From a virus (Duplodnaviria > Heunggongvirae > Uroviricota > Caudoviricetes): DNA of 64,000 bases. The stretch lies in the IMG/VR virus record IMGVR_UViG_2731957818_000004. One strand, given 5' to 3'. Shown in pieces: positions 2,019-63,418 of this stretch. The first letter of the stretch is position 1. Every line of letters begins with the position of its first letter. Both the position numbers and the translations under genes were made by a program. Below the pieces are notes generated by a model that did no database searches, was not told the DNA's origin, and was given only the letters and a program-made list of their open reading frames with translations.

Positions 2019-2037
2019 GTATAAGTACTTACTCACT
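2019..2037. promoter_or_regulatory. Class B palindrome half-site (TATAAGTACTTAC) in the divergent promoter region between the ParB operon and the helicase. A TATAAT box lies adjacent.
   Basis: Seen directly. Confidence 0.45.
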
Positions 2038-2081
2038 ATAATAGCCAATTACCATACAAAAGGCACGAAGGAAAGAGGTTT

Positions 2082-3641
2082 ATGACAGTTCGGATTGTAT
2101 CGAATGCAGTCAATGCGCTGATTTCTGGCGCTGATGACAACGTGAAACGGCTCGTTCAGGAGATGTTGAGCTATGAAGTGGAGGCTGGTGACTGGAAAGG
2201 AACCAGCACGATGTTCAACTGGAGTAAAAACGCGTTCCCGGCTGGGTTTGCGAAGCCAGTAGCGGCCAACCTTCTGAAAGCTGGCATCAAATGCGTGCAT
2301 GTGCGCAAGGAAAAAGCCCCCGCGCTGGGTAATCCGAACCCGGTAGTTAACCCATTCCCGTATAACCCGGACTATGCGTATCAGGATCAGACTGTGGAAA
2401 CACTGGTGCGCGAAGGGATGATGATTGCCCAGATTGCGACGGGTGGCGGTAAATCGAACGTAGCGTGTAAGGCAGCTGCTCGCATTGGTCGTATGACGCT
2501 GTTTTTAACCACGCGCTCGGTTCTGATGTTCCAGATGGCAGAGAACTTCCAGAAATCCATCGACTACCGCGCGGAGAATGGCGAGCCGTGGTTGAAAGGT
2601 CAGAAAGTTGGGGTGATTGGATCTGGTGAGTTCCAGGTCTCGCGCCATATCAACGTTGCCACGGTGCAGACCCTGGCCAGTTTTCTCGAAGAGCCACCGC
2701 GCGACGCATCGCCGGAGAAAAAACAGTACCACCTGAAGCGCCGGGAACTGGTTAAGCGCTTTCTGTCCAGCGTTTCTCTGCTGATTCTGGAAGAGGCACA
2801 CGAATCATCTGGTTCAAACTTCTACGATATCGCCAGGTTGTGCATCAATGCCGATTACCGTCTGGCGCTGACAGCTACGCCGTTCATGAAGGACTCGACC
2901 GAGGCAAATATGCGTCTCATGGCCGTTGCCGGCCGCATTGAGATAAAGGTAACGGAGAAATATTTGATCGATCGAGGTATTTTAGCGAAACCATACTTTC
3001 TATATCATAAAATCGCGTACACTCCAGACGAGGTGCGGATTAGGGCCGAACTTGCTTCGAAACACCTGAACTTTCGGGTTGGAATGAGTACGGCTTACCA
3101 GAAAGCCTATCAATTAGGCATCGTTTACAATCTGGGCCGCAACGAGGCTATTGTGCGCGAAGCGTTAATGTACAAAAGTCACGGTCTGAACTGTATGACG
3201 CTGGTTCGTTTGAAGCGTCATGGTCAGATTTTGATGGAAATGATGAAGGAAAGCGGCCTGAAGGTCGATTTCATCTACGGAGAATCAAACCAGACTACCC
3301 GACAAGCAAAGCTCAACAGTCTGGCGGCAGGCAAGATAGATGTTCTGATTGGTTCAACCATTCTGGATGTTGGTGTCGACGTTCCAAGCGTAGGGGCGGT
3401 GATTCTGGGTGGTGGCGGCAAAGCCGAAGTTGAGATGCGCCAACGTGTTGGTCGCGGTCTTCGAGCCAAAAAGAATCAGGCTAACGTGTGCTTTATTACC
3501 GACTTTATCGACGTGAGCAACAAATATCTCATGTCGCATTCATATGAGCGGAAGCACATTATCGATACGACGCCTGGGTTTGCCGAGGGCGTATTGCCGG
3601 TGGGTAGCACATTCGATTTCACTGTTTTGAATAGAGAGTAA
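2082..3641 (+). CDS. SF2 DNA helicase (DEAD/DEAH-like; ResIII plus helicase C-terminal domain; UvsW/RecG-like candidate).
   Basis: Motif I QIATGGGKSN, motif II LILEEAHE, motif III LTATPF, motif VI QRVGRGLR. Divergent from the ParB operon. Confidence 0.7.
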   Translation: MTVRIVSNAVNALISGADDNVKRLVQEMLSYEVEAGDWKGTSTMFNWSKNAFPAGFAKPVAANLLKAGIKCVHVRKEKAPALGNPNPVVNPFPYNPDYAYQDQTVETLVREGMMIAQIATGGGKSNVACKAAARIGRMTLFLTTRSVLMFQMAENFQKSIDYRAENGEPWLKGQKVGVIGSGEFQVSRHINVATVQTLASFLEEPPRDASPEKKQYHLKRRELVKRFLSSVSLLILEEAHESSGSNFYDIARLCINADYRLALTATPFMKDSTEANMRLMAVAGRIEIKVTEKYLIDRGILAKPYFLYHKIAYTPDEVRIRAELASKHLNFRVGMSTAYQKAYQLGIVYNLGRNEAIVREALMYKSHGLNCMTLVRLKRHGQILMEMMKESGLKVDFIYGESNQTTRQAKLNSLAAGKIDVLIGSTILDVGVDVPSVGAVILGGGGKAEVEMRQRVGRGLRAKKNQANVCFITDFIDVSNKYLMSHSYERKHIIDTTPGFAEGVLPVGSTFDFTVLNRE

Positions 3642-3643
3642 GC

Positions 3644-3922
3644 ATGAGCGAGAAACGCGCTATACACTGCCAGGTTCAGTTAACCGAAAAAGCAAACGAC
3701 AAGCTGGAAACCTTTCAGAATCGACTGCGTGAACGCAATATTAAGCTGTCAAAGGCAGACATCATCAATCTGGTGCTGTCCAACATGACGATGGCTGATT
3801 TTGATAAGGCAGCTACGTCATTAGAGGCTTCTGCAAAGGCCCGTGAAAAGGTCATGAAGATTTACGAATCCTCTGGCATGACCAAAGAAGATCTGGCCGA
3901 TATTCTCAAACGTCTCGATTAA
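3644..3922 (+). CDS. Small hypothetical protein, possibly a ribbon-helix-helix DNA binder.
   Basis: 92-aa ORF starting 3 nt after the helicase stop. N-terminal beta-strand-then-helix pattern (RAIHCQVQLTEKANDKL). Confidence 0.4.
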   Translation: MSEKRAIHCQVQLTEKANDKLETFQNRLRERNIKLSKADIINLVLSNMTMADFDKAATSLEASAKAREKVMKIYESSGMTKEDLADILKRLD

Positions 3923-3981
3923 GCATTAAGGGCGTCGCAAGACGCCTTGTTCGTTGAAGTGATAAGGATTTAGTTCAAGCC

Positions 3982-4284
3982 ATGAAACACGTTCTACTTC
4001 CACTGATTACCATCCCCGTTTTACTCCTGAGTGCATGTTCATACCGCCCTGTGTCTGTAGCCGATGCAAAACCGGCGCCGCAGGCCAGAGTTTTCAAATA
4101 CCAGACGTCTGCACCAACCACGCTGGTGGTTATGAGGGACAAAGGTATGATAGGTGCGGGCTGTGACGCACTGAACCCTGCTCGTCAGGAACGCGAGACC
4201 ATCACCAAAGCTGGCGAGACGAAAGTCTTCCGGGTGTTCACCAGCAACGCAGGTGACATCGATATCCTACCAACGACACTGTGA
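3982..4284 (+). CDS. Small lipoprotein.
   Basis: Signal peptide plus lipobox LLLSAC. Confidence 0.55.
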   Translation: MKHVLLPLITIPVLLLSACSYRPVSVADAKPAPQARVFKYQTSAPTTLVVMRDKGMIGAGCDALNPARQERETITKAGETKVFRVFTSNAGDIDILPTTL

Positions 4285-4816
4285 CGATATGACGAATATT
4301 ACTGACATCACCTACGGGATTCCTGCAGAAGTCTGGCCGCGCGATTACACCAACGTGGAGAAGGCGCTGATGTTCTGGCGTAAGTCTCTCATTCCTGTAA
4401 GGGTCACGATGGAAGATGGTCAGGTGTTCTGCATGTACGTTCAGGGTCTCATGTCGTCGCGCAACAAAGTCGATCTTTGCCCTGCCCCGTTCGACAAAGA
4501 AAATCGTATAAGGCTCCCACTTGAGCGAATCAGTACGATTGAATCAGGTGTGACAGAAGGCATTGCGCACGATTTCACGGGTCGGACAACGGTACACCCA
4601 GACTATGTGGACAATCGGCCATCTCGCCGTGATTTCTTCAAAATTTGTCGCCAGGCTCATGAGATGCAGAAGTCTATAAGGGTCTACATGGCGGATGGCC
4701 GTGAACTTGAAGGTGTGTCTTCAGGCGTTGACGCTTGTCAGGTCACACTCAGCGTTGGCGATGGTCGGAAGATGGTCGTCATGTTCGATTGGGTTGAACG
4801 AATTTTACCGTTTTAA
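4253..4816 (+). CDS. Hypothetical protein. The start is uncertain; an alternative ATG lies at 4289.
   Basis: ORF adjacent to the lipoprotein gene. No recognisable motifs. Confidence 0.4.
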   Translation: MTSISYQRHCDDMTNITDITYGIPAEVWPRDYTNVEKALMFWRKSLIPVRVTMEDGQVFCMYVQGLMSSRNKVDLCPAPFDKENRIRLPLERISTIESGVTEGIAHDFTGRTTVHPDYVDNRPSRRDFFKICRQAHEMQKSIRVYMADGRELEGVSSGVDACQVTLSVGDGRKMVVMFDWVERILPF

Positions 4817-4819
4817 GTT

Positions 4820-8486: not shown

Positions 8487-8560
8487 TTTTGGTCTCCCTG
8501 TTGTTGACCTGATTATATTATTGTCATAGGTAAGCACTTACAATACAGGTAAGCAAAAAA

Positions 8561-15238: not shown

Positions 15239-15529
15239 TTACTCTTCCTTACTCCTTGCTCTGTTAGCCTGCACTTCCTTAGCCAGCTCATAGGTAATTT
15301 TGCACGGCACAATCATCGCCCAGCCTTTTTCGTGGCTGTTAATCACCTGCTGAACATGGCCGTCTGTAATGGGCAGATCCGGCAACTGTTTAAAAACTTC
15401 CATCTGCTCATGGATATGCAGAAACCACCTTGCCAGCTCCATCTGCTCACCGCGGGTGAGGGGATTATCCAGCGGGGACTTAACAAAAGCGGAGACGCGC
15501 TCGACAGGCAGATCATTCATGCCGCGCAC
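15239..15529 (-). CDS. Hypothetical protein.
   Basis: Compactly packed ORF. Confidence 0.4.
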   Translation of the reverse strand: MRGMNDLPVERVSAFVKSPLDNPLTRGEQMELARWFLHIHEQMEVFKQLPDLPITDGHVQQVINSHEKGWAMIVPCKITYELAKEVQANRARSKEE

Positions 15530-16206
15530 CTCTCTGCTTTATCCTGCAATTCGCGGACATACTCGACCAAAGAGCCGCCTGGTGGGATCTGGCATTCCTC
15601 AACTAACTGGAAGTAGATGTCTGCGGCCGCGCGTGTGTTCGAGCCTTTGTTTAGCTGCTCTTCGCGCAGCGCATCACGTTCGTTGATCAAACGAACACAC
15701 TCGCCGTTACGCTGATCAACAACGGCCTCAAGTTCAGCGATACGTTCGCCTGGCGTCTTGCCTTCTTTGCGCTGGATGGTGACGGTAAACTCGCCCATTT
15801 CAGGAACGTTGTACCACAGCTCCAGGTAGTTTCTGGCGCCGCTGCGGACGAACTCACCTGCGAACATGGTGGCGAACATCGCAGAGGCCATTTCTCCTTT
15901 GAAAAGCGACTCCAGATCTAACGGAGTGCCGGCAGACAGAGCCTCTTTTGCTGTGTCCATTGCGTCCATGAACCGGTCGAACTCATTGGCGCGTTTCTCA
16001 AGGTCTCTCCACTGCTGGCTCCAACGGCGTGCCAGATGTTCGATAAAAACCTGCGCCGATTCATCAAAGTTACCTTCGAACGTCACAAGCTCCTTGTCGA
16101 TTTTGATGGTTCCGGCAGGCGTTCCTTCGTTCCCCTGTAGCACTAAACTAAATGGCAGCTTCGCCTGATTAACGCTGGCGAATGTAATTCTCGAGTTTTC
16201 GCTCAT
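15517..16206 (-). CDS. Hypothetical protein.
   Basis: A class B palindrome lies just upstream at 16247-16266. Confidence 0.5.
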   Translation of the reverse strand: MSENSRITFASVNQAKLPFSLVLQGNEGTPAGTIKIDKELVTFEGNFDESAQVFIEHLARRWSQQWRDLEKRANEFDRFMDAMDTAKEALSAGTPLDLESLFKGEMASAMFATMFAGEFVRSGARNYLELWYNVPEMGEFTVTIQRKEGKTPGERIAELEAVVDQRNGECVRLINERDALREEQLNKGSNTRAAADIYFQLVEECQIPPGGSLVEYVRELQDKAERCAA

Positions 16207-16246
16207 GTGTTCACCTCTGATAAAGTGGCTCTATTCTTACATAAAT

Positions 16247-16266
16247 TAGGTAAGTATTTACCTATC
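16247..16266. promoter_or_regulatory. Class B palindrome TAGGTAAGTATTTACCTATC.
   Basis: Perfect 7-bp arms. Upstream of 15517..16206. Confidence 0.55.
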
Positions 16267-17950
16267 ATTTTACGCGTTTGAAAACGTATACGCTTACAGT
16301 GATTCCGGTGTCTTCAAACTCGTCAGTAAACGACTTCCCTTTGGCATAAACGTAATTATCCAGCGTCATCCAGTTCAGAACTGGCGCATCACCCGGCAGT
16401 ACTGCCACCAGTCGCCCGCCGACTTTCAGATGCTCCAGCGCGGCCAGCGTATGCTCTCTGTGACGGCCAAGAGAGTAGGGCGGGTTCATGACGATTTTGT
16501 CGAACTGATAGCCTGCGTTGTCCTCAGACCACTTCATGAAGTCGCAGCAGACCGTATTTGTGTACCCCTTACCAAGCAGGATATCAGCGAAGAGAGGTGC
16601 GACTTCTATGCAGGTAACGTCTTCCGGATTAGCGTCGATGCAGGCCAGCAGATCTCCACGCCCGGCTTCAGGCTCCAGCAGCTTCTCACCTGGCTTCAGC
16701 TCAATGGCTCTGGCAACGTACTCCGCTATCAAACGTGGGGTAGGGTAGAACTGGTGTGATTTTGTATCCGGTATTAAGCCGGTGGCCACAATCGTATTGA
16801 GCGTATGGCCGATCTCATACGGGAACTGCCAGTGCTTTTTCTCCTGTACGCCGCCAATGAAGTTCAGTGTGCGCTCAAGCTCTTCCACCTGCGACTTCTG
16901 GAGGTTGGAATCAGAAAAGTACCAGACGCCTTTGTCTTTGCTGAATCGCCCGTCGCGCAGCGCGGTACGAACCGGCTCGGAGATCGTCTTCTGGATTAAC
17001 CCGAACTCTTTTGGTGCCCGTGTTTTGGGTGCAGTACGGCATGGCGCCGGGATTGCTGCAGGCATACTGTAAGCCAGCACCTCATTCAGCTTCCAGGCCA
17101 CGTCAGGATGTATTTCAAAGTGAACGTTGCCGTTCTTGAACATCTTCACGCGCATCAGGTTTCCGTCGACATTCATCCAGTCACCGGTCTGGCAGTCGTT
17201 TGCCCGGTACGCAGCTGATAGCATCTCAGTTGTGCGGTTGATGGTGATGAACTCTTTGTGTGCGAAGAAATGAAGCATGACGCGCAGGTCGTCGATGTAG
17301 TCCTCTTTCCGGTAGTTCACGCTGACGCTGTCCCGCCAGAACTCGGAAATGCAGTTGGCGATGATCAGACGCTCGCTAAAGCCGTTCGTCTTATTGGTCT
17401 TGTGGGCAGGACTCAGCGCTTTAAACAAGCCATACACGCGCTCAGAGAGATATTTGTGCCTGTCATTCAACAGATTGAGCATCGTGGGGATGACCGTTTC
17501 TGCTTTGAACTCCGGCACACCAACGAACTCCTTAACCTTCATCTGGTAGCCGGTTCTGTCAGTCCTGATGGTCTCCTGCTTGCCCTCGATAAACTGCTCA
17601 CGCCACTCGTCGCGGCGGGAAGCTGGCATGATCAGCAGAACGTTTGTCATATCCGTGACCTTCTTCCAGTACTCGGCCCAGATATTCTGTTTCACCCATT
17701 CAAGGTCGACCTTGTCCAGCCAGGCTCTGTTAAAGCGTGTGCGCTCGTCATCCGGCCGGTGGTTGAGTCGCAGCAGGCGGTTAATCATGTTGTGGCGTTC
17801 GTCGCCATAAACGAAGTCGTGAACCTGATGCATGAATGCGATCTCTTTCTCGCACTCGGCCACAATTTCGTGGATGACGTTCATTTCCTGCCGGTAGTCG
17901 ATATCAGTGTTTGGGGTGATAGCGTCAATGATGGAAAGGGCTGTATTCAT
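16265..17950 (-). CDS. DNA methyltransferase (N6-adenine or N4-cytosine) with a large N-terminal domain of unknown function.
   Basis: Motif I LLEPEAGRGDL and motif IV IVMNPPYS near the C-terminus. Start moved to MNTALS; the track TTG start lies in the UTR. Confidence 0.6.
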   Translation of the reverse strand: MNTALSIIDAITPNTDIDYRQEMNVIHEIVAECEKEIAFMHQVHDFVYGDERHNMINRLLRLNHRPDDERTRFNRAWLDKVDLEWVKQNIWAEYWKKVTDMTNVLLIMPASRRDEWREQFIEGKQETIRTDRTGYQMKVKEFVGVPEFKAETVIPTMLNLLNDRHKYLSERVYGLFKALSPAHKTNKTNGFSERLIIANCISEFWRDSVSVNYRKEDYIDDLRVMLHFFAHKEFITINRTTEMLSAAYRANDCQTGDWMNVDGNLMRVKMFKNGNVHFEIHPDVAWKLNEVLAYSMPAAIPAPCRTAPKTRAPKEFGLIQKTISEPVRTALRDGRFSKDKGVWYFSDSNLQKSQVEELERTLNFIGGVQEKKHWQFPYEIGHTLNTIVATGLIPDTKSHQFYPTPRLIAEYVARAIELKPGEKLLEPEAGRGDLLACIDANPEDVTCIEVAPLFADILLGKGYTNTVCCDFMKWSEDNAGYQFDKIVMNPPYSLGRHREHTLAALEHLKVGGRLVAVLPGDAPVLNWMTLDNYVYAKGKSFTDEFEDTGITVSVYVFKRVK

Positions 17951-19921: not shown

Positions 19922-20416
19922 TCAGTCACAGTAGAAGGAAGATCCGGAGTTGCAGGTCGAGCTGGAATCGTGTCCAGCAGCATCCCATCCAGAGAGACAG
20001 GAGGTCGTTCTGGCAGGGGCGTCGTCTGCAAGGTTGTGGTGGAAGTAGTTGTGTCCGGTATCAACAGACTCTGACCGGCTGGCACGGCTACCGCTGCCAG
20101 GGTTGCTAAAATTACTCCGTAGGCCATTGGCTTGAGTCGATTTCGTTGAAAATTTTCCATGAGAACTGTCCTTGTGTGCCTGGGATTCACGCAACACACG
20201 AGAGGCGACGGAATCACGCACCTTCTCCATGCCTACTGTCGCGCCCAGATTTGCTATGGCGGTAGCTTGCGCATCAATGCGCTTCTCCAGCTCAAACACT
20301 CGTTCTTCCAGTTCCGCAAGGCGTGCAGAAACACGGCCGCTAAACAGCTCGGCCAGAACCAGGCGAATTGAACGGGGACGTTTATTGAAAGAAGTGAAAG
20401 GCGTTTGACGTGCCAT
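19922..20416 (-). CDS. Hypothetical protein.
   Basis: Class B palindrome upstream at 20545-20566. Confidence 0.45.
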   Translation of the reverse strand: MARQTPFTSFNKRPRSIRLVLAELFSGRVSARLAELEERVFELEKRIDAQATAIANLGATVGMEKVRDSVASRVLRESQAHKDSSHGKFSTKSTQANGLRSNFSNPGSGSRASRSESVDTGHNYFHHNLADDAPARTTSCLSGWDAAGHDSSSTCNSGSSFYCD

Positions 20417-20544
20417 TTGGATTCCACTCAGTGTCAGAAAGAGTTGCGGCTGGACAAGCCAGCCGCCTTTTGGCGTTCCATCCTGGAACAGTACCTAACC
20501 GGTACTTCGTCATCCTGACGAACGGTAAGATACCTGATTTAAAA

Positions 20545-20566
20545 TGATAGGTAAATACTTACTTAT
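20545..20566. promoter_or_regulatory. Class B palindrome GATAGGTAAATACTTACTTATC.
   Basis: Upstream of 19922..20416. Confidence 0.55.
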
Positions 20567-21167
20567 CGTTTTGTGACAAAAATCCAATGTCACGCTTGTG
20601 AGGCATATCAGCTGCGGAGTAGGCGGCGATCTTCGCCAGGCGGTCACACATTTCGTTCTCGCGATGACCGGCATGACCTTTAACCCACTTCCAGCGGACA
20701 TTGTGACGGCTGGCGGCCGCATCGAGACGTTTCCAGAGATCGACGTTTTTGACTGGCTTCTTCTCAGACGTGATCCATCCGTTACGCTTCCAGCCTTTCA
20801 TCCAGAGCGTCATGCCGTTTTTAAGATACTGGCTGTCGGAATGCAGGATCACGTTGCAGGGGTACTTCAGACGCTCCAGCGCAATCAGGGCGCCCATCAT
20901 CTCCATCCGATTGTTGGTCGTGCTGTGGAAACCCTCAGAAAGCTCGCGCTCTTCGCCTCGATACTGGAGAACGATGCCGTAACCGCCCGGTCCGCCCGGA
21001 TTTTTGAGGCAAGAGCCATCACTGAATACTTTTACGGTTTTGAGCTGGGGATTGAACTCGACTACGGGGGTTTTGAAGTTGGTACGGGATTGCTGGTGGG
21101 TTTGGTATCTGGCTTTGGACTTCGTGCGGCAGCCAGTATGTTGCCGGGCTGGGGTCTTGGTCGTCAT
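20559..21167 (-). CDS. rnhA: Ribonuclease HI.
   Basis: [17 protein letters not shown]...TNNRMEMM...LHSDSQY...[16 protein letters not shown] pattern of RNase H1. Confidence 0.85.
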
Positions 21168-21745
21168 TTTGGCTCCAGAATCGCGCGCCGCGACGATTTT
21201 TTTCCCTCGCGCGTGTGCGCACGCGTGCGTGTAAATATTAAAAATTTTTTAGAAAATAAAACTTACTTCCCAGAACAGGTTTTAATAAAACCTGAACTGA
21301 ACGAACGAAGTGAGTGAAGTTCACCTCGAACGAAGTGAGAGGTTGTCTTTTCAGGTAATACTTTCCCAGGGAGGTGAGTACAAAATTTCCTCACCAACCT
21401 GGTCGTTACATAACCTGAAAAGTTATGACCTAAGTCTACTGCCAGCTTAGGCTTGGGAAGTTATGGATGACAGCACCCCAGAACCGAGATCTTCCCACAC
21501 TTTATGAAGGGGAGTACTGGATTCAACCTCTCGAAACACTCCAGACTCGACAATCATAAAGTGACCCTTCTCTCTGCTCACTTTGGTTCCCCCTTCCCCA
21601 ACCCCTAAACGGTGCCGGTTCTACGCTGGTAGTGAGCTTTTTTAAACCTGACGCCAGTGACGCTATCCCCCACCCATCAGGTCGAGCTGCCGGAATCAAT
21701 CCGGAAAGCGGGTATATTTTATCACTGGCGATCTGCGTTTTAAAT

Positions 21746-21759
21746 GGTAAGTACTTACC
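21746..21759. promoter_or_regulatory. Class B core GGTAAGTACTTACC, a perfect 14-bp palindrome, at the head of a 580-bp non-coding leader before rnhA.
   Basis: Seen directly. Confidence 0.5.
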
Positions 21760-21761
21760 GA

Positions 21762-21992
21762 TTATTTCGATTGATTATTTTCTCGCCCATGAAGCTGGAC
21801 GTTCAGGGCAAACACCTCATTGATGAGTTCCCCTAACAGCTGCTCCACCAGCTCTTTGTGCTCGCCTGAATGAAGACATTTGAGCGACCATTCGTAGAGA
21901 CTGAAAGCCTTATCGCGATCTTTCATCATGTCGCGCACTTTGGCCAGAAAATCGCTCTCAACGAGCGCTACGACGTTCGTCGGGTATACCAT
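21762..21992 (-). CDS. Small hypothetical protein.
   Basis: 76-aa ORF. Confidence 0.35.
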   Translation of the reverse strand: MVYPTNVVALVESDFLAKVRDMMKDRDKAFSLYEWSLKCLHSGEHKELVEQLLGELINEVFALNVQLHGRENNQSK

Positions 21993-22110: not shown

Positions 22111-22167
22111 CCTGCGTCTGTATATATTAATAATTAGTACTTAGTTATTTATATATACAGACGCAGG
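22111..22167 (-). terminator. Very long hairpin with a 17-bp perfect stem (CCTGCGTCTGTATATAT ... ATATATACAGACGCAGG), a 23-nt loop and a T-run on the minus strand. It is the terminator after the dam-like gene.
   Basis: Seen directly. Confidence 0.6.
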
Positions 22168-22788: not shown

Positions 22789-22799
22789 TACTTTGCTCT

Positions 22800-22820
22800 G
22801 ATAGGTAATTACTTACCTAT
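22800..22820. promoter_or_regulatory. Class B palindrome GATAGGTAATTACTTACCTAT.
   Basis: Immediately upstream of the dam-like gene. Confidence 0.55.
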
Positions 22821-22973
22821 TTTTTCATTTAATCCAACGGATAGCAAACAAAGAAGAACGCGCCAGATTCGCAAACGGGAAGCTCTCTGGCGCGTTTTAT
22901 CGATGCTGGGTATGCAATTAGCTTACCCAGCGTCCTAAAGCTGTCAGGGGGCTTTAGATCGGGTAGGGGAACA

Positions 22974-27665: not shown

Positions 27666-27800
27666 ATTATTTTATACAAGTTTATCTGTCAGAAGTGTGT
27701 AAGGCTAGGAGGGGAGTAAAAAAAATGGTGGCTCTTAGGCCACCATTGCAATGAGCAATTAATAACTTGGACAATAAAACACGCCCAGGCAATATATAAT

Positions 27801-27820
27801 GATAAGTAGATACTTACAAT
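27801..27820. promoter_or_regulatory. Class B-like motif GATAAGTAGATACTTACAAT.
   Basis: Between the MazG-like gene and the thyA terminator/promoter. Confidence 0.45.
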
Positions 27821-28755
27821 TATTTTTTTACCATCTCGTAAAGAGATGAGGCTTTCGCCTTCTCAACAAAGCGAGTCAGATCCACATCGCTGTAGGTTGG
27901 GAATTTGAGGATCTTGCCATCAGAAACTCTGAAGCCAATCATCATGTCAGTCCCTTCAGCGTGGCGGAAGCCCAGATCTTCCTTGTCGTATTTGCAATTC
28001 TCTACCGCCACACGACGCTCTTCGGCGTCAGCCGGCCACAGCTTGGTCATGTTGGAACGATGGATTTCTGCCACCAGCTCAACAATATCGATACCGAGAA
28101 AATCAGCCAGGCGGTAGGTCATCATGCAGGCAACGTAGATTTTGTTCATCACGCGGCGCAGCTCCTGCACCAATTCGGAATCGTTAATCGGCTTCGCTTC
28201 GAGTTTGTCAGCCAGTGCATTCAGCATTAATGCAGCTTCTTTTGCTTCTTCAAACGGGATGGCCATGTCGTCAAAGACCGTGTTGCCTGGAACCATGATG
28301 GTGTGGATGAAGCGATCAACACTCTGCTCTTGGGTGTAGTAGCTCATGCCTGTAGAGATACCGCCTTTGATGGCCACCATTGTGCCGACGCCCACGTAAA
28401 GGAAGTCAGCCATCGCATCCAGCAGCGCCGTCATGTCCCCGTTTTTAGCTGCCGGGATGCCCTCGGTAACAGCTTCTTCGTGGATCAGCTTGGCACGCAG
28501 ACGCAGTAGTGCCGGATCTGGAATGGCACGGCGTGGGTGCTGAAACAGTGTGTGGAACTGGTCAACCATCAGGTAGATGCTTTCCGTTGCCTTGCCAAAA
28601 CCGGGATTCAACTCGTAAGGCTCTGGCTTAAATCCCACGAGTTTGTCTGCGGCAAGTTTCAGATGATCGGTCAGTTTCGTAAATTTCATGTCTTCTTTCT
28701 TTCCTTTGGACTTCATTTGATACGTCAATTGTGACCCAGCAGCGCCAGGCCACAA
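27820..28755 (-). CDS. MazG-like all-alpha NTP pyrophosphohydrolase (tandem-domain candidate).
   Basis: LRAKLIHEEAVE...ALLDAMADFLYV (EExxE...DxxxD/E pattern) and a C-terminal LGIDIVELVAEIHRSNMTK resembling the MazG C-terminus. Confidence 0.4.
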   Translation of the reverse strand: MWPGAAGSQLTYQMKSKGKKEDMKFTKLTDHLKLAADKLVGFKPEPYELNPGFGKATESIYLMVDQFHTLFQHPRRAIPDPALLRLRAKLIHEEAVTEGIPAAKNGDMTALLDAMADFLYVGVGTMVAIKGGISTGMSYYTQEQSVDRFIHTIMVPGNTVFDDMAIPFEEAKEAALMLNALADKLEAKPINDSELVQELRRVMNKIYVACMMTYRLADFLGIDIVELVAEIHRSNMTKLWPADAEERRVAVENCKYDKEDLGFRHAEGTDMMIGFRVSDGKILKFPTYSDVDLTRFVEKAKASSLYEMVKK

Positions 28756-32349: not shown

Positions 32350-32404
32350 AAAAAAGGCCACTAAATATAGTGGCCTCATGTTAATAGATAAGCACTTACC
32401 TATC
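32350..32404 (-). promoter_or_regulatory. nrdA leader: class B palindrome GATAGGTAAGTGCTTATC (32387-32404) followed by a terminator-like hairpin GGCCACTATATTTAGTGGCC plus T-run (32350-32377), only 12 nt before the nrdA ATG.
   Basis: Seen directly. A possible TTGATA-17-TAACAT promoter overlaps the palindrome. Confidence 0.5.
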
Positions 32405-32414
32405 AATTACCGAC

Positions 32415-36963: not shown

Positions 36964-37076
36964 GTGTCTTTTCCTTTGTGGTTATTTTGATACAGATGTT
37001 AAGCGTGTTTGAGAGGCGAGCAACCCAGACAACACGGCACAGAAGAAAAACTACAGGCACACGATTATGACAAAAT

Positions 37077-37098
37077 ATATAAGTAAGTGAATACCTAT
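37077..37098. promoter_or_regulatory. Class B-like motif upstream of sbcD.
   Basis: tataagtaagtgaatacctatt. Confidence 0.45.
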
Positions 37099-37191
37099 TT
37101 TATGAAGCGGCATAGATTTCTAAATGTTACAAGCCACTCTATAATCGCAGTCACTCATTGATGACAACTAAACGAAAAAGGAGAACGGACG

Positions 37192-40968: not shown

Positions 40969-40980
40969 GCCACGACTCCT

Positions 40981-41145
40981 TAGATAACGCCAAATGCTGA
41001 GTCGAATACCAGCACTACGGCCAGCGCATTAACCATCGCGCCATTAACAGGCGTCAGCGCTTTACGGATTGCTCCGGTGAAGATGCAATCGAGCACAAAA
41101 GCTATCGAGATAATAAGTAATAAAGTGTCAAATACAGTTTTCATG
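40981..41145 (-). CDS. Small (54-aa) hydrophobic membrane protein, absent from the ORF track because it is shorter than 60 aa.
   Basis: ATG at 41145 through stop at 40981; reads MKTVFDTLLLIISIAFVLDCIFTGAIRKALTPVNGAMVNALAVVLVFDSAFGVI. A class B palindrome lies immediately upstream. Confidence 0.4.
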
Positions 41146-41165
41146 ATAGGTAGATACTAACTTAT
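41145..41165. promoter_or_regulatory. Class B-like motif GATAGGTAGATACTAACTTAT.
   Basis: Upstream of the 54-aa membrane ORF. Confidence 0.45.
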
Positions 41166-41184
41166 ATATTTTTTGCTGTAAATA

Positions 41185-41460: not shown

Positions 41461-41527
41461 GTGTTTCTCCTTGTTGGTAAGTACTTATTTATATTAATGT
41501 GCGCCATGCGGCGCACAATCATTGTGT

Positions 41528-43289: not shown

Positions 43290-43490
43290 TTACTTCTCCT
43301 TAGTTTTATTGAGTGAGTTGATATACCTGCGGCCAGCTTTTAACAAGGCAACCGGGAAGATTAAAGCGATGGCAAGTCCGATAAAGAAGGCCAGATCGCT
43401 TTTAGCTGATATAAGCGATGGAACCAGTAAACCGTAAATAAAGCAGACTGATACCACTGCTGAAACAGCCATGAGATAACCCTTGATCAT
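43290..43490 (-). CDS. Small two-TM membrane protein.
   Basis: 66-aa hydrophobic ORF that ends 4 nt before the SPFH gene start. Confidence 0.4.
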   Translation of the reverse strand: MIKGYLMAVSAVVSVCFIYGLLVPSLISAKSDLAFFIGLAIALIFPVALLKAGRRYINSLNKTKEK

Positions 43491-43521
43491 GTGTTTCCCT
43501 TTGTCGTTTTGGTGTAGAAAT

Positions 43522-43540
43522 GATAAGTAAGTACTTATAT
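43522..43540. promoter_or_regulatory. Class B palindrome GATAAGTAAGTACTTATAT.
   Basis: Upstream of 43290..43490. Confidence 0.5.
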
Positions 43541-43581
43541 ATTTTCAAGTATAAAAAAGGCGTCCAACGGACGCCTTGTGA

Positions 43582-46960: not shown

Positions 46961-47049
46961 GTATTTCTCCTTGTTGTGATTGTGGCCATTGGCGCTATGC
47001 GCGTTGGGCGTTCGTTTATTCGTGGCTCTTTCGAGCGAGAAGAATAATA

Positions 47050-47070
47050 GATCAGTACTTACTTACGATC
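47050..47070. promoter_or_regulatory. Class B-like GATCAGTACTTACTTACGATC.
   Basis: Upstream of the gp32-like gene. Confidence 0.45.
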
Positions 47071-54817: not shown

Positions 54818-54876
54818 GTGTTTTCCTTACTGTTTGTCGTTCGTGGGGTATATCTTATATAAATATATTAGGCTGT

Positions 54877-54895
54877 ATAGTAAGTGATTACTTAT
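54877..54895. promoter_or_regulatory. Class B-like ATAGTAAGTGATTACTTAT.
   Basis: Upstream of the CobS-like gene. Confidence 0.45.
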
Positions 54896-54912
54896 TTTTA
54901 CGGGTAAAGCAA

Positions 54913-57400: not shown

Positions 57401-57613
57401 TTAAATGGTTCTCACGGCAAGGGAGCCGCAACCAGTATTGATGAGTGTGAAATGTTTATTTTTTAGTTCAAAAGTGAAAACCGTCGTATCAACCATCTCC
57501 ACGGGAAGCTCTTCAGATTCTAGTTCTGTCAGAATCGTCGCAACGCCATCCAGCCCAATCGCATATGCGTGTCCAACCTCAAGGGCGGTCAATTTAGAAG
57601 TTATATTTTTCAT
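57401..57613 (-). CDS. Small hypothetical protein.
   Basis: 70-aa ORF. Confidence 0.35.
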   Translation of the reverse strand: MKNITSKLTALEVGHAYAIGLDGVATILTELESEELPVEMVDTTVFTFELKNKHFTLINTGCGSLAVRTI

Positions 57614-57876
57614 TTCATATCATCCAACTGAACACATTTGAAAGTTCGGCAATACTACTACCTATTGTATCAATATGGAATGCACCTATATCAGATATGT
57701 CTTACTTTTCTCCGTAAGCGAATAGTGACAAATCGCCTAAAAACCATAGTATAATGGCGGTATGCCGGGATTTTGTTCCTACCGAAATTAAATAGATAAG
57801 TCTTTACAACCCTGGCCTTTGCTGTAATATCAGTAAGCACTTACCAGAGATAAACAAAACACGCAAGGTTCACTAC

Positions 57877-58263
57877 ATGGCTACCAACGAAACAGAGATC
57901 AAACAAGGTCGCTACGCAGCTTACATTGACTCGTTAATCACAATCTCGCCTAAAAGTCAGGCTACCATTGCCAAAGAGGTTGGGTACAAGAACGCCAACA
58001 ATCTCTCTCTCATCAAAAGCGGCAAAATCCCACTTCCAGTAGATAAGGTTCGAGCATTAGCCGAAGCGCTGGATGCAGATCCGGTTCGACTGATGCTGAT
58101 GGTTCTGGAAGAACGTCATCCTGAGCTGCTTGAGTTTTTTCGCGAAGAGGGCACTGCACCTCTCTCCGCTGATGAAAAACTCGTTCTAGAAGCGTTCCGT
58201 AACCGTTTTGACGGTCAACAAGGTGCGTCAGAAAAGGTGGTTGAGGCCATCAAGTCACTGTGA
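57877..58263 (+). CDS. XRE-family helix-turn-helix transcriptional regulator.
   Basis: QATIAKEVGYKNANNLSLIKSGKIPLPVDKVRALAEAL HTH pattern. Convergent with the recombinase gene. Confidence 0.55.
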   Translation: MATNETEIKQGRYAAYIDSLITISPKSQATIAKEVGYKNANNLSLIKSGKIPLPVDKVRALAEALDADPVRLMLMVLEERHPELLEFFREEGTAPLSADEKLVLEAFRNRFDGQQGASEKVVEAIKSL

Positions 58264-59494: not shown

Positions 59495-59532
59495 GTCGAT
59501 TTTTTTAAATCTGAGAAACAAGCAAGATGATT

Positions 59533-59949: not shown

Positions 59950-60464
59950 TTGGTCGAAGCCTCTGTGCCACTGGCTGCCAGAACAGCAAGAGCCGCATGG
60001 CTAATTTCTGATTCGCGAAGAGGGCTAACTGTCAGGATCTGATTAACCAGATTATCGAGATTTTTGGCCCCGTGACGCATCTCAGCGACAGCCCTGCATA
60101 GCTTGTATTCAGTGGAGTTTTTGTCGTAAGACCGGATGATCGACATCTCTGGTAATGCCTGGAATAAGAACTCGGCAATTGCCAGGGAGCCAATTACATC
60201 AGCACGTAAGCCTTCTGCGGCAAACTTTGCCTGCTCAAAATCATGTTCTGCCAACGCATCCAGTCTGGCGTAAATTTCACGGCCATCAGCGGTAACTTCC
60301 TGGATTTTACCCACACTTTCGCGCAGTTCTGCGAGGGATGGTGCGCTCGCCCCTGAAGTAATAGCGCTGCGTTCATGGGTGTGATCTTTGGCATAAGAAC
60401 CGTGTGACAGGCTGCTTAGTGCCAGTGCCACAACCATTGCGATTTTGGTGATTGAGTCTTTCAT
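59940..60464 (-). CDS. Periplasmic protein with a cleavable signal peptide.
   Basis: MKDSITKIAMVVALALSSLSHGSYA signal. Its own sigma70-like promoter TTGTCG-17-TACACT lies upstream. Confidence 0.5.
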   Translation of the reverse strand: MKDSITKIAMVVALALSSLSHGSYAKDHTHERSAITSGASAPSLAELRESVGKIQEVTADGREIYARLDALAEHDFEQAKFAAEGLRADVIGSLAIAEFLFQALPEMSIIRSYDKNSTEYKLCRAVAEMRHGAKNLDNLVNQILTVSPLRESEISHAALAVLAASGTEASTKWL

Positions 60465-60560
60465 GATTTATCTGCCTGCTTTTTGCTGGCTCGTAACTAA
60501 GTGTACGCGTTCCCTGAAACTGCGACAAACAGAAACGGCCCCAAAAGGAGCCGTATTGTA

Positions 60561-60809
60561 TTACAGGGTGCTCGCAAAAGCAGCAAATTCCGTATAACCC
60601 CCGATAGGTTCGCCATTTACGAACACCTGCGGTATGGTCTCCACCGGCTTGCCAACCAGGTCGCTCAACTTCTCTTTGTCGATCCCGGCAGACACAATAT
60701 CGATGTATTCATAATCGCCAAAGCCGTGGCCGTGCAGCTGCTTCGCCAGCTCGACCGCACGTTTGCAGTATGAGCAATTATCCCGTCCGTAGATAACGAC
60801 CTTCATCAC
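60561..60809 (-). CDS. Glutaredoxin / NrdH-like redoxin, the probable RNR electron donor.
   Basis: VVIYGRDNCSYCKRAVELAK CxxC glutaredoxin fold. 82 aa. Confidence 0.7.
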   Translation of the reverse strand: MMKVVIYGRDNCSYCKRAVELAKQLHGHGFGDYEYIDIVSAGIDKEKLSDLVGKPVETIPQVFVNGEPIGGYTEFAAFASTL

Positions 60810-61171
60810 TTCACCTCGTGCAGCTGCTGCTTGAGAAGATAGCCTTCCAGGGGCCAGATTTTGGCAATCGCGTTCTGGCGTGCAATTTTACGTCCGATCT
60901 CCGGATCAAAGTTCTCCGGGCTGGCGCACGCAGACTCGCCGGTTACGGTGTAGCCGTTCTCCAGCACAAGAACGCAGAATGTCAGCAGTTCGAGTGATTG
61001 CGGGGCCGGTTCAGGCTCTTCCTGCTTCAGCCACAACGGTGAGCTGCGATATCCGTCCGCGCCGGTAAAGTAAAATTCGCCTGAGATAACAGCTTCAATG
61101 CGTTCCGGGGTAACACGCGCGGCCGTTTTGCCTTTGGCCACAATCTCTTTTTCGATATCCATATCGGTCAT
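60806..61171 (-). CDS. Hypothetical protein.
   Basis: ATGA overlap with the glutaredoxin gene. Confidence 0.45.
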   Translation of the reverse strand: MTDMDIEKEIVAKGKTAARVTPERIEAVISGEFYFTGADGYRSSPLWLKQEEPEPAPQSLELLTFCVLVLENGYTVTGESACASPENFDPEIGRKIARQNAIAKIWPLEGYLLKQQLHEVK

Positions 61172-61186
61172 TTTGGTTTCCTTACG

Positions 61187-61390
61187 TTAAAAACGAGCGA
61201 TTCGGGCACGAAGAATTAGCTCATAGGCTTTCATCGCGTCCAGCTGCTTAATGAGCATGTTGCGGTCGACTTGAGGGAGACGACTAAAAATCTCGGTGGC
61301 TGTGAAGCACTCCAGCTTGAAAATACGGCGCGACAGATCTTCCTGTTCCTCTATCACACGCTGCTGGTGAGGCAGATATTCTTTGGTCAC
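61187..61390 (-). CDS. Small hypothetical protein, GTG start inferred.
   Basis: GGAGATAAGC followed by a GTG 11 nt after the phoH stop. The track ATG start would overlap phoH by 80 nt. Confidence 0.3.
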   Translation of the reverse strand: MTKEYLPHQQRVIEEQEDLSRRIFKLECFTATEIFSRLPQVDRNMLIKQLDAMKAYELILRARIARF

Positions 61391-61400
61391 GCTTATCTCC

Positions 61401-62174
61401 TTATTGGTAGGCTTCAAGCGCAATTTTGCATAACTCAGACCGTACACAGTCCTCGCTCTCGAACTCGATCCGTCCAACATATTCAGACGGCTTAAAGCGC
61501 TCCATAGCGTCTTCCAGCCCGGATTTGACGCTGCCAGGAAGATCGCATTGGGTGATGTCCCCGTTAACGATAACCGTGACGTTTTCTCCCATACGGGTCA
61601 GGAACATTTTCATTTGTGACGCTGTCACGTTTTGAGCTTCATCCAGAATTACCACAGCGTTTTCGAAAGTGCGCCCACGCATGTAAGCGAAGGGGGCAAT
61701 CTCCACTTTGGCCACCTCTGGCTTTAAGCAGTATTCGAGAAACGAGCCACCCAGACGCTTCTGTAGCACGTCATAGACGGGCCGGAAGAACGGAGCGAAC
61801 TTCTCGCTCATGTCGCCCGGAAGGAAGCCCAGATCTTCGTCTGCTTGCAATACCGGACGAGTCACGATGATCTTGTCCACTTCCTTATTAAGTAGACGCT
61901 GCGCTGCAACGGCCGCGGCCAGGTACGTTTTACCGCAGCCAGCTTCGCCAGTGGCGAACGTTAGCGTTTTGGTATCGAGGGAGATGAGATAGTGGGCCTG
62001 GGCCTCGTTTCGCGCTTCGAGAGGAGAGTTGTCGCGCTTCGGTTTCGGAGGCAGAGCAGGGGCGGCAGCCAGCTCGTCAACGATGATTGTGTCAATTTCG
62101 TAGCCGTGGATGCGTGGCTTTGACTTCAGTGCCTGACGAGCTGCGCGACGCGCCTGTTTACGTTTGTTTCCCAT
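61401..62174 (-). CDS. phoH: PhoH-like ATPase. Start moved to MGNKRKQ.
   Basis: GEAGCGKTYLAAAVAAQ Walker A and PhoH family architecture. AAAGGA RBS. The track N-terminus translates the class B palindrome. Confidence 0.75.
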   Translation of the reverse strand: MGNKRKQARRAARQALKSKPRIHGYEIDTIIVDELAAAPALPPKPKRDNSPLEARNEAQAHYLISLDTKTLTFATGEAGCGKTYLAAAVAAQRLLNKEVDKIIVTRPVLQADEDLGFLPGDMSEKFAPFFRPVYDVLQKRLGGSFLEYCLKPEVAKVEIAPFAYMRGRTFENAVVILDEAQNVTASQMKMFLTRMGENVTVIVNGDITQCDLPGSVKSGLEDAMERFKPSEYVGRIEFESEDCVRSELCKIALEAYQ

Positions 62175-62221
62175 ATTGAGTCCTTTCAAGTGAGTCACCG
62201 AAAGAACTATACCGACAAATA

Positions 62222-62242
62222 ATAGGTAAGTCATTACTTATC
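62222..62242. promoter_or_regulatory. Class B palindrome ATAGGTAAGTCATTACTTATC.
   Basis: Upstream of phoH. Confidence 0.5.
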
Positions 62243-62412
62243 AATTGCATTTTTATGAGACATTCAAGACTCATTGTTTCAGTCTTTGGAAGACTGTTGC
62301 TGCGCGGTTATCGAAACTTGGTTAATGCTAATGTACGCGTACATTAGCATTAACCCTCTCATTCCGGCAACAAATAGCATTACAGCAGTGGGAAGCGACG
62401 AGAACCATCAAC

Positions 62413-62437
62413 AAAAAAGGGGCCGAAGCCCCTTTGG
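62413..62437. terminator. Bidirectional intrinsic terminator GGGGC-CGAA-GCCCC flanked by A- and T-runs.
   Basis: Seen directly. Lies downstream of the tRNA on the minus strand. Confidence 0.6.
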
Positions 62438-62591
62438 ATTTTGCGCTGAAAAAAGTGTAACTACGATGCTAAGAAGCACTATGGTTAAGAACGTCTGCCG
62501 TGTCTATCACAGCGTTGAACGGTCTGGCGACATTTGCGGAGTCTTTCCGTTCGGACGGTGGTGGCGAACTCCAAACCGTTCAGCGCTGTGT

Positions 62592-62666
62592 TGGCGATGG
62601 TGGGTGGACTCGAACCACCGACCAGTTGATTAACAGTCAACCGCTCTACCACTGAGCTACACCATC
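62592..62666 (-). tRNA. tRNA-Asn (anticodon GUU) with an encoded CCA.
   Basis: Manual cloverleaf: acceptor GATGGTG/CACCATC (7 perfect bp), D-arm GCTC-AGTGGTA-GAGC, anticodon stem GTTGA/TCAAC with loop CTGTTAA, T-arm GGTGG-TTCGAGT-CCACC, discriminator G, CCA. Confidence 0.8.
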
Positions 62667-63397
62667 ATTATTCGCGGCGGTACTTGTTCATGGACAACCA
62701 GGCAACCAAGAACTTTCCCGCAACTTGCACTTTACGTTAGTGCCAGACGAGGCTTGTGGCTTGCTCACATAGAGCGAAGATCTGGAATCCTTCTCGGCGG
62801 TTGATGGCCGCCAGATTCTTCGATCTTATTGGATGTATGGAATCATCCATGTTGTGAAACCAGGGGCTACATAGGCAACAATGATTTCACCAGAGGGTTA
62901 AAGAATCCTGCTTTCACAACGTTGAGGCCACTGACCCATTTATGTTCGACCCAACATATTGATCAGTCACTACAGCTCTGTGGAATCACCTGTATGATTA
63001 AAAGAAAAACAGTGACCTCAACGTTGTGCGCTGGCTAACCAAGCCAGCCGGGTTACGTCGCCGCTTTTAACCCAAGATTAAACGACATAAGTAATGGAAA
63101 TGACGTAACAGGATGGACGGTCAGCTGGCTGAAACCGGGATGATGGAATGGAATGAGGAAAACCAACCGCCCATCCTGTTACTTCATCGAATAGGGCATG
63201 GGTGGTGCAACATGCCCTATCCTGCGTTCTGCAATCACACTCGCTCAGTGTGTCCCATTTCGGTGACGAGGCTGGAAACTGACCTCGCTGGTGTTTGGCT
63301 TCTTAGGCTACTGCCAGGTACGTATCTTCGTTTGCAGTTATATTTAACGTTCAAACAGTCGCGTCTCAACGAAAACAAATGAACCTTATACATAATA

Positions 63398-63418
63398 GAT
63401 AAGTAAGTAAATACTTAT
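63398..63418. promoter_or_regulatory. Class B-like GATAAGTAAGTAAATACTTAT.
   Basis: Seen directly. Confidence 0.4.

Follow-up and report, generated by a model that had tools for sequence, protein, structure and literature searches.

A dispersed palindrome shared by SSU5-like phage-plasmids and a small Cro/C1-type protein as its candidate repressor

Introduction

The C1 repressor of phage P1 acts on more than 14 asymmetric operators of 17 bp that are scattered across its genome, and KorB of the IncP plasmid RK2 binds 12 dispersed palindromes (OB) located at variable distances from promoters. In the lambdoid phage P22, the half-site is ATTTAAG. The repressors of cluster A mycobacteriophages (gp71 of L5 and the TipsytheTRex repressor) have more than 20 sites genome-wide, placed at promoters and in short gaps between co-directional genes, structural genes included (PMC9283540). 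Here we analyze a palindromic repeat, referred to as class B, in a 64,000-nucleotide (nt) stretch of DNA from a virus of the Caudoviricetes (IMG/VR record IMGVR_UViG_2731957818_000004), hereafter called the window, together with the 128-amino-acid (aa) helix-turn-helix (HTH) protein encoded in it that is our candidate for binding the repeat.

Between positions 20000 and 32000 the window is 97.9% identical to Salmonella phage SSU5, and the plasmids nearest to it, of ~110 kb and found in Citrobacter and Enterobacter, are ~97% identical; because of both matches the window is assigned to an SSU5-like phage-plasmid, of which it is a part. Elements of this kind include pHCM2 (Salmonella Typhi), pMT1 (Yersinia pestis) and many ~110-kb plasmids of Klebsiella, Enterobacter, E. 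coli and Acinetobacter, and some of them bear resistance genes; the family is clinically relevant and poorly studied. We found no description in the searchable literature of the class B sequence or of operators or promoters of SSU5-like elements, nor any account of how these phage-plasmids stay lysogenic or get induced. The results presented below lead us to propose, with a probability of roughly 0.5, that class B is a dispersed operator, most likely bound by a dimer of the element-encoded 128-aa protein, a repressor of the XRE type that would silence viral genes in the plasmid state.

Results and discussion

A degenerate palindrome family in non-coding DNA

A preliminary description of the window, made from the sequence alone, had distinguished two recurring motifs, class A and class B, and had presented the second as an inverted repeat with a perfect core found in about 18 intergenic regions. 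The palindrome family exists but is degenerate: the exact core GGTAAGTACTTACC occurs once in the window (21746-21759) and is imperfect at most sites, so that its perfection does not hold. When up to three mismatches were allowed, the 14-mer core had 15 copies in the window against 1.11 expected, a number reached in none of 100 shuffles, and the full 22-mer had four against none expected. An iterated palindromic weight matrix of 26 bp returned 22 window sites of at least 9 bits, compared with a mean of 0.4 (maximum 2) in 50 Markov shuffles. At a score of at least 13 bits there were 19 sites, 18 of them non-coding; non-coding DNA amounts to 16.5% of the window (binomial p ~1e-13), and of the 54 intergenic gaps that reach 30 bp, 18 contain a site. 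The matrix scan recovered every location that had been named (16243, 20544, 21740, 22798, 27645, 27799, 32381, 37076, 41143, 41470, 43520, 47044, 54873, 62219 and 2014), and class A and class B are indeed two distinct motif families lying in different gaps. The class B consensus is atGATAGGTAAGTACTTACCTATcat, with G8, T9, A10, A11 and the mirror positions T16, T17, A18 and C19 as the most informative ones; it can be described as a degenerate dyad of 22-26 bp with the half-site ATArGTAAGt and the core RGTAA-N4-TTACY.

Conservation across lineages

The distribution of class B was followed in the full SSU5 genome, which was rebuilt from four pieces before scanning, in the E. coli phage Cyrano, whose DNA is ~77% identical, and in two distant relatives picked via the capsid protein, which matched 963 plasmids in PLSDB. 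These are a plasmid of Acinetobacter baumannii (NZ_CP061515.1; capsid protein 59.5% identical, GC content 42%) and one of Aeromonas caviae (52.6% identical, 55%). Complete SSU5 has 28 sites, 26 of which are non-coding in a genome with 11.6% of non-coding DNA. In Cyrano, ~31 sites were found at orthologous positions and with an unchanged consensus. The Acinetobacter relative has 39 sites (32 non-coding; consensus AAAATATTAGTAAGCGCTTACTAATATTTT) and the Aeromonas relative 32 (27 non-coding; consensus GATCAGTAAATATTTACTGATC), the non-coding share of both being ~12% as estimated from an open reading frame (ORF) mask. Over this set, including the window, 82-95% of the sites in each genome are non-coding, and copies are also present on Photorhabdus and Serratia fragments.

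Class B had been regarded as a regulon of DNA-metabolism and middle operons. This view has to be abandoned, since seven of the SSU5 copies lie in the structural/lysis module (between terL and the portal gene, at the portal gene's 3' end, downstream of the major capsid gene, between genes for tail proteins, and between Cor and the holin gene), and the orthologous gaps of the Acinetobacter and Aeromonas relatives bear copies too. Among these are the gap between terL and the portal gene and the one in which the order capsid gene, site, terminator is kept. The part that is invariant across lineages is RGTAA-N4-TTACY. The presence of the same core in orthologous gaps of elements whose capsids are only 53-60% identical argues that the element itself encodes a conserved protein that reads this sequence specifically and, judging from these comparisons, class B is an old feature of the whole family.

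Two half-sites conserved independently

If the palindrome acted as a stem in RNA, compensatory changes between its arms would be expected. Arm-to-arm Watson-Crick pairing was compared with that obtained after shuffling the right halves among sites, and no excess was observed in the SSU5 type (157 vs 155.9 +/- 3.6; p = 0.43) or in the Acinetobacter relative (293 vs 292 +/- 6; p = 0.45). G-T mismatches on the sense strand were not favoured over A-C ones (13 vs 15). The top-scoring sites fold poorly as RNA, at 0 to -2.3 kcal/mol (-2.3 for site 43520, -1.1 for 27645, and one without any fold), within a range of 0 to -8 kcal/mol for all sites, and a search of Rfam gave no family matching class B. 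Information peaks at T5, A6, G8, T9, A10 and A11 (positions 5-11) and in the mirror (positions 16-22), ~11 bp or about one helical turn apart, as the geometry of an HTH dimer would demand. The two half-sites are thus conserved independently. The lack of covariation, the poor RNA folds and the absence of a -10 element at a fixed distance (see below) together point to class B being read by a dimeric DNA-binding protein, and not as an RNA hairpin or a core promoter.

A candidate repressor and its switch region

Only one of the proteins conserved in all lineages has a recognisable sequence-specific DNA-binding fold, namely the 128-aa XRE/Cro-C1-type protein. Its match to Pfam HTH_31 is weak (18 bits, below the 27-bit cut-off), and it matches phrog_8, 'transcriptional regulator', with E = 1e-11. 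In the AlphaFold2 model (mean pLDDT, the predicted local distance difference test score, of 78.7) it adopts a five-helix HTH fold of the Cro/C1 type, whose N-terminal 60-70 residues superpose on C.AhdI, 434 Cro and P22 c2 with a root-mean-square deviation of ~1.5-2.0 A over 60-64 residues and target-normalised TM-scores of 0.75-0.80. The top 50 Foldseek matches listed were mostly Cro/C1-type and restriction-modification controller proteins, with no mycobacteriophage repressor among them, and, with regard to homology to L5 gp71, a sequence search of all PDB chains gave no match at E up to 10. In the recognition helix N41 is nearly invariant, I46 invariant, and S44 is also conserved.

Sites and candidate gene occur together, the gene being part of the family's core set. 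The repressor family was found in 998 PLSDB plasmids, compared with 963 for the capsid protein, and its matches are nearly all on contigs of ~100-116 kb. The gene adjoins a CobT-like gene in the enterobacterial, Acinetobacter (38% identical protein) and Aeromonas (35%) lineages and in most lineages examined it also has an integrase gene as neighbour. This holds for the Photorhabdus locus too, where no CobT gene was called in the stretch examined. In the window the repressor gene is divergent from the genes of lytic direction, and its 3' end overlaps that of the convergent integrase gene (58255-59361, - strand).

Class B copies were present in the switch region of every lineage examined. A conserved promoter for the repressor gene, TTTACA-16-TAATAT, lies between two copies in the window, in Cyrano and in an E. 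coli lineage designated L014 (P0017; 20 kb examined). One of the two contributes the -35 hexamer; the other begins within the -10 hexamer and spans the predicted transcription start. Only the copy at the -35 is conserved in Serratia, the Photorhabdus relative has a strong copy beside the Cro-like ORF, and the Acinetobacter and Aeromonas relatives bear copies upstream of the repressor gene. In lineage L014 the repressor helix reads KYQNQVSF and not KNANNLSL, and the class B sites (456, 7196, 17316 and 19009) appear shifted to GTAAAT / GTATGT, with a much stronger copy at the repressor promoter (31 bits; region 9700-10000). These differences are at most a lead and may represent a different immunity specificity; no full copy of the KYQNQVSF lineage was found in PLSDB or among complete E. 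coli genomes. CYRAN_45, the Cyrano homologue of the candidate, is among the genes transcribed above background in an LF82 lysogen (10-fold), and ciprofloxacin induces Cyrano (PMC9928086). As an S24 peptidase domain is not recognisable in the 128-aa protein, induction would probably proceed via an antirepressor or some other route. A Rha/Ant-like gene is located at window positions 18773-19615.

The SSU5 deletion and the class A cassette

SSU5 has been described as virulent (PMC5427195). With respect to the window it carries a clean deletion of ~5.2 kb (window 57380-62552) that removes the Cro-like ORF, the switch region, the XRE repressor and integrase genes, a YafO toxin module, a glutaredoxin-like gene and PhoH, while all other class B sites are kept. 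From this comparison, SSU5 looks like an immunity-deletion derivative of a phage-plasmid.

Class A is a promoter-like cassette read on the - strand and composed, in this order, of gCCTTt, ~17 nt, GATAAT, taACACCAACAAGA, AAACAAnTTGTTT, a ribosome-binding site and ATG. Its 13-mers are found in the window at 7493, 7984, 8939, 9528, 12062, 17963, 18686, 29947, 42377, 51004 and 57311, with further positions at 10764, 12490, 12806, 14829 and 19685, and it precedes nrdB, the CobT-like gene, a large methyltransferase gene and many small genes. Of the 20 copies in SSU5, two lie upstream of terS. The cassette is absent from the Aeromonas relative and has three copies (at most one mismatch) in the Acinetobacter relative, as against 18-20, so that class B is the only abundant dyad in these two elements, which keep the repressor family. 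It had been suggested that the two motifs belong to temporally distinct transcription programmes. A simple early/middle split is argued against by nrdA bearing class B and the adjacent nrdB class A, and by class A heading the terS operon of SSU5; the reading of the motifs as temporal classes is not supported.

Proposed role of class B

In the plasmid (lysogenic) state, repressor dimers would occupy ~20 sites in the window, and ~28-39 per genome, in the short intergenic stretches that separate lytic genes of the same direction. If a site covers a weak internal promoter of the sigma70 type, the bound repressor would block initiation; if it lies right after a stop codon, against a ribosome-binding site or beside a terminator, it might act as a roadblock to read-through. 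The two weaker copies flanking the repressor's own promoter would provide negative autoregulation, and once the repressor was lost or inactivated, the entire genome would be derepressed simultaneously. We infer the binding, the silencing of transcription and the roadblocking from sequence and predicted structure. Only tentatively can a more far-reaching version be put forward, and we hold it to be rather doubtful: one small Cro/C1-type repressor would silence a phage-plasmid of ~100-110 kb through 25-40 intergenic dyads, including those of the late structural operon and partly by an elongation roadblock, and would form an independently arisen counterpart, built on a dimer and a dyad, of the L5 sites known as stoperators, conserved across the SSU5/pHCM2/pMT1 supergroup from Enterobacteriaceae to Acinetobacter and Aeromonas.

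Several observations weigh against this role. With 15 and 20 bits, the two copies at the repressor promoter rank near the bottom of the window's sites, and no strong site was found in the window on a recognisable promoter of the divergent 70-aa ORF. With a third of all gaps bearing a site, finding one near the repressor gene counts for little; the retention of sites in SSU5 carries no weight either, given that this phage is 98% identical to the window. The identification of the XRE protein as the binder would follow from co-occurrence, synteny and the sites at its own gene, and the reader could be another of the proteins conserved in all lineages, such as the two ParB-like proteins or SSU5_130 (88 aa, encoded just upstream of terS). 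Searches of Pfam, NCBIfam and PDB sequences with SSU5_130, 038, 043, 051 and 087 gave nothing useful. Class A cassettes, which would also need to be silent in lysogeny, carry a different dyad. Finally, the sites are polar. They lie a median of 10 nt past the upstream stop codon, compared with 43 nt to the next start codon (p = 0.04); their upstream flank is A-rich, with AAAA in eight sites and in none of the mirrored flanks (Fisher p = 0.001), the core itself being symmetric; and of the two outer half-sites it is the upstream one that is conserved better in the Acinetobacter and Aeromonas relatives. Such polarity would not be expected of a plain symmetric repressor site; in part it arises where a left arm contributes the stop codon of the gene before it.

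Site geometry and alternative explanations

The preliminary description had taken class B for an operator or activator site and not for part of a core promoter, on account of its variable spacing, and this was borne out. The distance from site to start codon goes from overlap to more than 400 nt, and -10-like hexamers are no commoner downstream of the sites than in the mirrored position upstream at any fixed offset. At the arm position they were in fact found 15 times upstream vs 10 downstream in SSU5, and 23 vs 8 times in the Acinetobacter relative. Alignment of the sites by direction of transcription revealed no conserved -35 or -10 column outside the dyad, and an arrangement like that of P1 late promoters, with a dyad at a fixed distance from a directional -10, was not observed, as no downstream offset was enriched. 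The outer arm does resemble a -10 (TATCAT, TAATAT, GATCAT), except in the GC-rich Aeromonas relative; since the mirrored arm is at least as -10-like, this is a property of the palindrome and not a directional signal. Sigma70-like hexamer pairs coincide with 6 of the 19 window sites, in differing registers, and 8 of 22 non-coding sigma70-like matches overlap a class B site, against 1.7 expected. Other sites abut a ribosome-binding site or overlap a start codon (terL/portal in three lineages, with 12-24 nt to the start codon, dam, hyp065 and hyp066). A terminator follows the site located after the capsid gene and those before nrdA and after mazG, and precedes it at 43520 and 8523. It is reasonable to read this heterogeneous geometry as that of operators, some lying over internal promoters and others standing alone.

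Part of these data would also fit an activator, an explanation we consider unlikely. An element-encoded dimeric activator would bind the dyad, centred near -20 of a weak -10, and recruit or remodel the host RNA polymerase at factor-dependent middle/late promoters, as Lpa does at P1 late and MotA at T4 middle promoters, thereby switching on DNA-metabolism and structural genes. Sites do precede the gene classes that are run by T4-like middle/late programmes; the -10-like arms and the excess of sigma70-like overlaps agree with it, as do the flank polarity and the usual distance of 43 nt from site to next start codon, both of which fit a promoter. SSU5, without a repressor, must still express these genes and keeps the sites, and SSU5_130 is a small conserved protein encoded at a frequent position for a late activator. 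However, the equal or higher frequency of -10-like hexamers on the mirrored upstream side and the arm of the Aeromonas relative are at odds with such a promoter; several sites (terL/portal, dam, hyp065, hyp066) are too close to the start codon for a transcript with a ribosome-binding site, a few have a terminator immediately after them, and the late operon is headed by class A, not class B. For an ordinary HTH dimer, moreover, a dyad centred at about -20 is in a repressing position. The enterobacterial and Aeromonas elements, finally, lack a counterpart of the sigma-70-family gene carried by the Acinetobacter relative.

Other candidates were tried and rejected. The scans for a -35/-10 column and for a directional -10 returned only the palindrome's own signal, which rules out a promoter of fixed geometry. 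A promoter for a phage sigma factor was discarded as well: tblastn found no counterpart of the Acinetobacter sigma-70-family gene in the window, SSU5, Cyrano or the Aeromonas relative, and a gene confined to one element cannot explain a motif common to all. The protein itself (a weak Sigma70_r2 match) is encoded at 40449-41114 of the Acinetobacter stretch analysed, L009 (NZ_CP061515.1 90449-91114), between the genes for a CobS-like ATPase and dnaE. None of the host boxes compared (LexA, Fur, TyrR, TrpR, NrdR and CRP) fits class B, and it is improbable that Salmonella, Acinetobacter and Aeromonas would have such a host factor in common. An obligatory link with terminators was excluded too, with a terminator-like hairpin within 60 nt downstream at only 3-4 sites per genome.

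We think it improbable that the sites belong to one of the two conserved ParB-like proteins, acting either as a KorB-like global regulator or as a DNA-organising/partition clamp loaded at parS-like dyads. All lineages, and SSU5 as well, retain two proteins with a ParB_N domain (651-1319 and 1319-2017), one class B site lies on the start of their operon, and KorB of RK2 offers a precedent for dispersed palindromes. On the other hand, Pfam finds only the N-terminal ParB/Srx domain and no HTH domain in them, PHROGs places both with ParB-like nucleases and N-terminal domains of methyltransferases, and their genes are found at the start of the terminase operon, alongside those of ABC ATPases, a position suggesting that they function in packaging or DNA processing. 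No link between these proteins and the sites was found, and neither the strict intergenic placement and polarity nor the copies on the XRE promoter would be predicted. Least probable is an element acting in RNA, in which the transcribed palindrome would form a hairpin serving as a processing, stability or anti-termination signal between cistrons: the position of sites just past stop codons between co-directional genes, the terminators that follow a few of them and the -6 to -8 kcal/mol of the best-paired copies would suit it, but the covariation and folding results given above led us to reject the hairpin, the stem sequence rather than its pairing is conserved from Salmonella to Acinetobacter and Aeromonas, and copies sit in divergent promoter regions.

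Sites and other features of the window

The sites that would serve as operators for the repressor, with their gene context, are collected in Table 1 together with the two genes of the switch region.

Table 1. Class B sites and switch-region genes of the window, with matrix scores and surroundings
Coordinates	Strand	Score (bits)	Description
2014..2039	.	16, weak	64-bp divergent region between ParB-like gene (start 2017, -) and UvsW-like helicase gene (start 2082, +); orthologues at SSU5 99795 and Cyrano 105104
8523..8548	.	18.6	Between hyp113 and hyp114; directly after an intrinsic terminator on the - strand
16243..16268	.	33	Overlaps stop codon of DNA methyltransferase gene (095); centre 49 nt upstream of start of ORF 15517..16206
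20544..20569	.	32.6	Overlaps RNase H stop codon; centre 140 nt upstream of start of ORF 19922..20416
21740..21765	.	28.9	Only exact GGTAAGTACTTACC; just past hyp089 stop, at head of long RNase H leader
22130..22155	.	20, doubtful	Loop of terminator-like hairpin 22111-22167; same hairpin family at SSU5 33470 and 78316 and Cyrano 31172, 78096 and 108354
22798..22823	.	33.3	Ends 9 nt before dam start codon
27645..27670	.	33.8	Ends 14 nt before thyX start codon; overlaps sigma70-like CTGACA-17-TAATAT
27799..27824	.	24.3	Overlaps MazG stop codon; terminator-like hairpins follow
32381..32406	.	30.8	Order on - strand: RuvC-like stop, site, intrinsic terminator (32377-32354), nrdA start (32337)
37076..37101	.	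27.1	Upstream of sbcD; overlapped by two sigma70-like matches
41143..41168	.	24.4	Last two bases belong to hyp066 ATG
41470..41495	.	26	Downstream end enters hyp065 Shine-Dalgarno
43520..43545	.	34.3	Order on - strand: RecA/UvsX stop, terminator, site, membrane-protein gene 43290..43490; coincides with best sigma70-like match, TTGAAA-17-TATCAT
47044..47069	.	26.4	Between genes for UvsY and gp32-like single-stranded DNA-binding protein (SSB)
54873..54898	.	23.5	Between CobT-like and CobS-like genes; conserved island in four-lineage enterobacterial alignment
57401..57613	-		70-aa ORF, homologue of CYRAN_46; divergent from repressor gene, Cro-like by position
57789..57814	.	14.9, weak	Right arm gives TTTACA -35 (57803-57808) of putative repressor promoter
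57826..57851	.	20	Begins inside TAATAT -10 (57825-57830) of putative repressor promoter; spans predicted transcription start; ends 25 nt before repressor ATG
57877..58263	+		128-aa XRE/Cro-C1-type HTH protein, candidate binder; homologue of CYRAN_45, 'putative repressor'
62219..62244	.	30.7	5' end of phoH
63396..63421	.	30.9	Overlaps hyp048 stop codon

One further copy had been proposed in the loop of the large hairpin at 22111-22167. The sequence is present at 22130, but it matches poorly, lacks the best-conserved bases G8-T9 and A18-C19, and is doubtful as a class B site. The hairpin (-33 kcal/mol, z = -8.4) belongs to a separate, very stable terminator-like repeat, distinct from class B even if its loop resembles it, which has the arms CCTGCkTCTGTATATA / TATATACAGAmGCAGG, an AT-rich loop of ~26 nt and a T-run. 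There are ~3 copies of it per genome, and others were located in SSU5 (~33458-33515 and 78304-78360) and Cyrano (~31160, 78084 and 108342). The leader that follows site 21740 is an unusually long gap of ~480 nt (window 21260-21740), from the site to the mapped N-terminus of RNase H, and holds a 58-aa ORF (21523-21699) and a sigma70-like match with an extended -10 (21744-21716).

Window genes are mostly on the - strand, and their content is T4-like in replication, recombination and nucleotide metabolism (NrdAB, ThyX, DHFR, Dam, SbcCD, UvsX/Y/W-like proteins, gp32-like SSB, CobS/T-like proteins, PhoH and DnaE). The iteron TATGCTGTCAGCGGTA, in 9-10 copies, lies to both sides (38648-38745 and 39869-40345) of the gene for the plasmid replication initiator, repA (38770-39870). 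The DnaE-like polymerase, a single ORF of 1172 aa in SSU5, is split in the window (49089-53401, - strand) into 51038-53401 and 49089-50258 by the insertion of a homing-endonuclease ORF of the HNH/NUMOD3 type (50255-50989); in the Acinetobacter and Aeromonas relatives this position is taken by a NUMOD4 gene. Finally, an ORF at 4370-4816 (+ strand) matches Pfam Flag1_repress (FljA, the phase-1 flagellin repressor) with E = 5e-81, and thus a host flagellar-phase regulator is aboard a phage-plasmid.

Comparison with known systems

A conserved operator together with a named candidate repressor makes the lysis-lysogeny switch of SSU5-like elements directly testable. Repression through class B would explain the virulence of SSU5, would predict immunity groups, and would offer a handle for curing or inducing SSU5-like plasmids; if the intergenic copies do block elongation, the stoperator principle would extend beyond actinobacteriophages.

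The likeness to L5 stoperators resides in the number and placement of the sites, with at least 20 dispersed copies in promoters and short co-directional gaps (19 here in the window and 28-39 in SSU5, Cyrano and the two distant relatives), perhaps in a polarity relative to transcription, which in class B is one of the flanks around a symmetric core, and in the persistence of sites in a virulent relative lacking the repressor, D29 with respect to L5 and SSU5 with respect to the window. The L5 site, however, is an asymmetric 13-mer bound by a monomer with two DNA-binding domains, whereas class B is a dyad of 22-26 bp with a candidate of 128 aa and a single HTH; this candidate has no relation in sequence or fold to the L5-type repressor, and the hosts of class B elements are Gram-negative. 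P1 is likewise a phage-plasmid in which an immunity repressor has many scattered operators before replication, recombination and other lytic functions, but its sites are asymmetric and unrelated in sequence, C1 is not of the XRE type, and P1 late genes are controlled indirectly via Lpa, while class B is also found inside the structural operon.

With the lambdoid repressors (434, P22 c2 and lambda) the candidate shares its predicted fold, and class B shares AT-rich dyad half-sites (ATAGGTAAG, to be compared with that of P22) and copies over the repressor's own promoter. Lambdoid operators are nevertheless confined to OL/OR, against 20-40 copies of class B genome-wide; the inner spacing is AAG-N2-CTT in class B vs AAG-N4-CTT and hence shorter; and the S24 peptidase domain is not recognisable in the 128-aa protein. 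The OB sites of KorB resemble class B in being a dozen or more copies of one palindrome across a plasmid, with global repression in RK2, and differ in sequence and in their binder, a ParB-family CTPase with an HTH domain of its own. From these comparisons the class B network would work most like the L5 stoperators and the dispersed operators of P1 C1, being a member of neither family.

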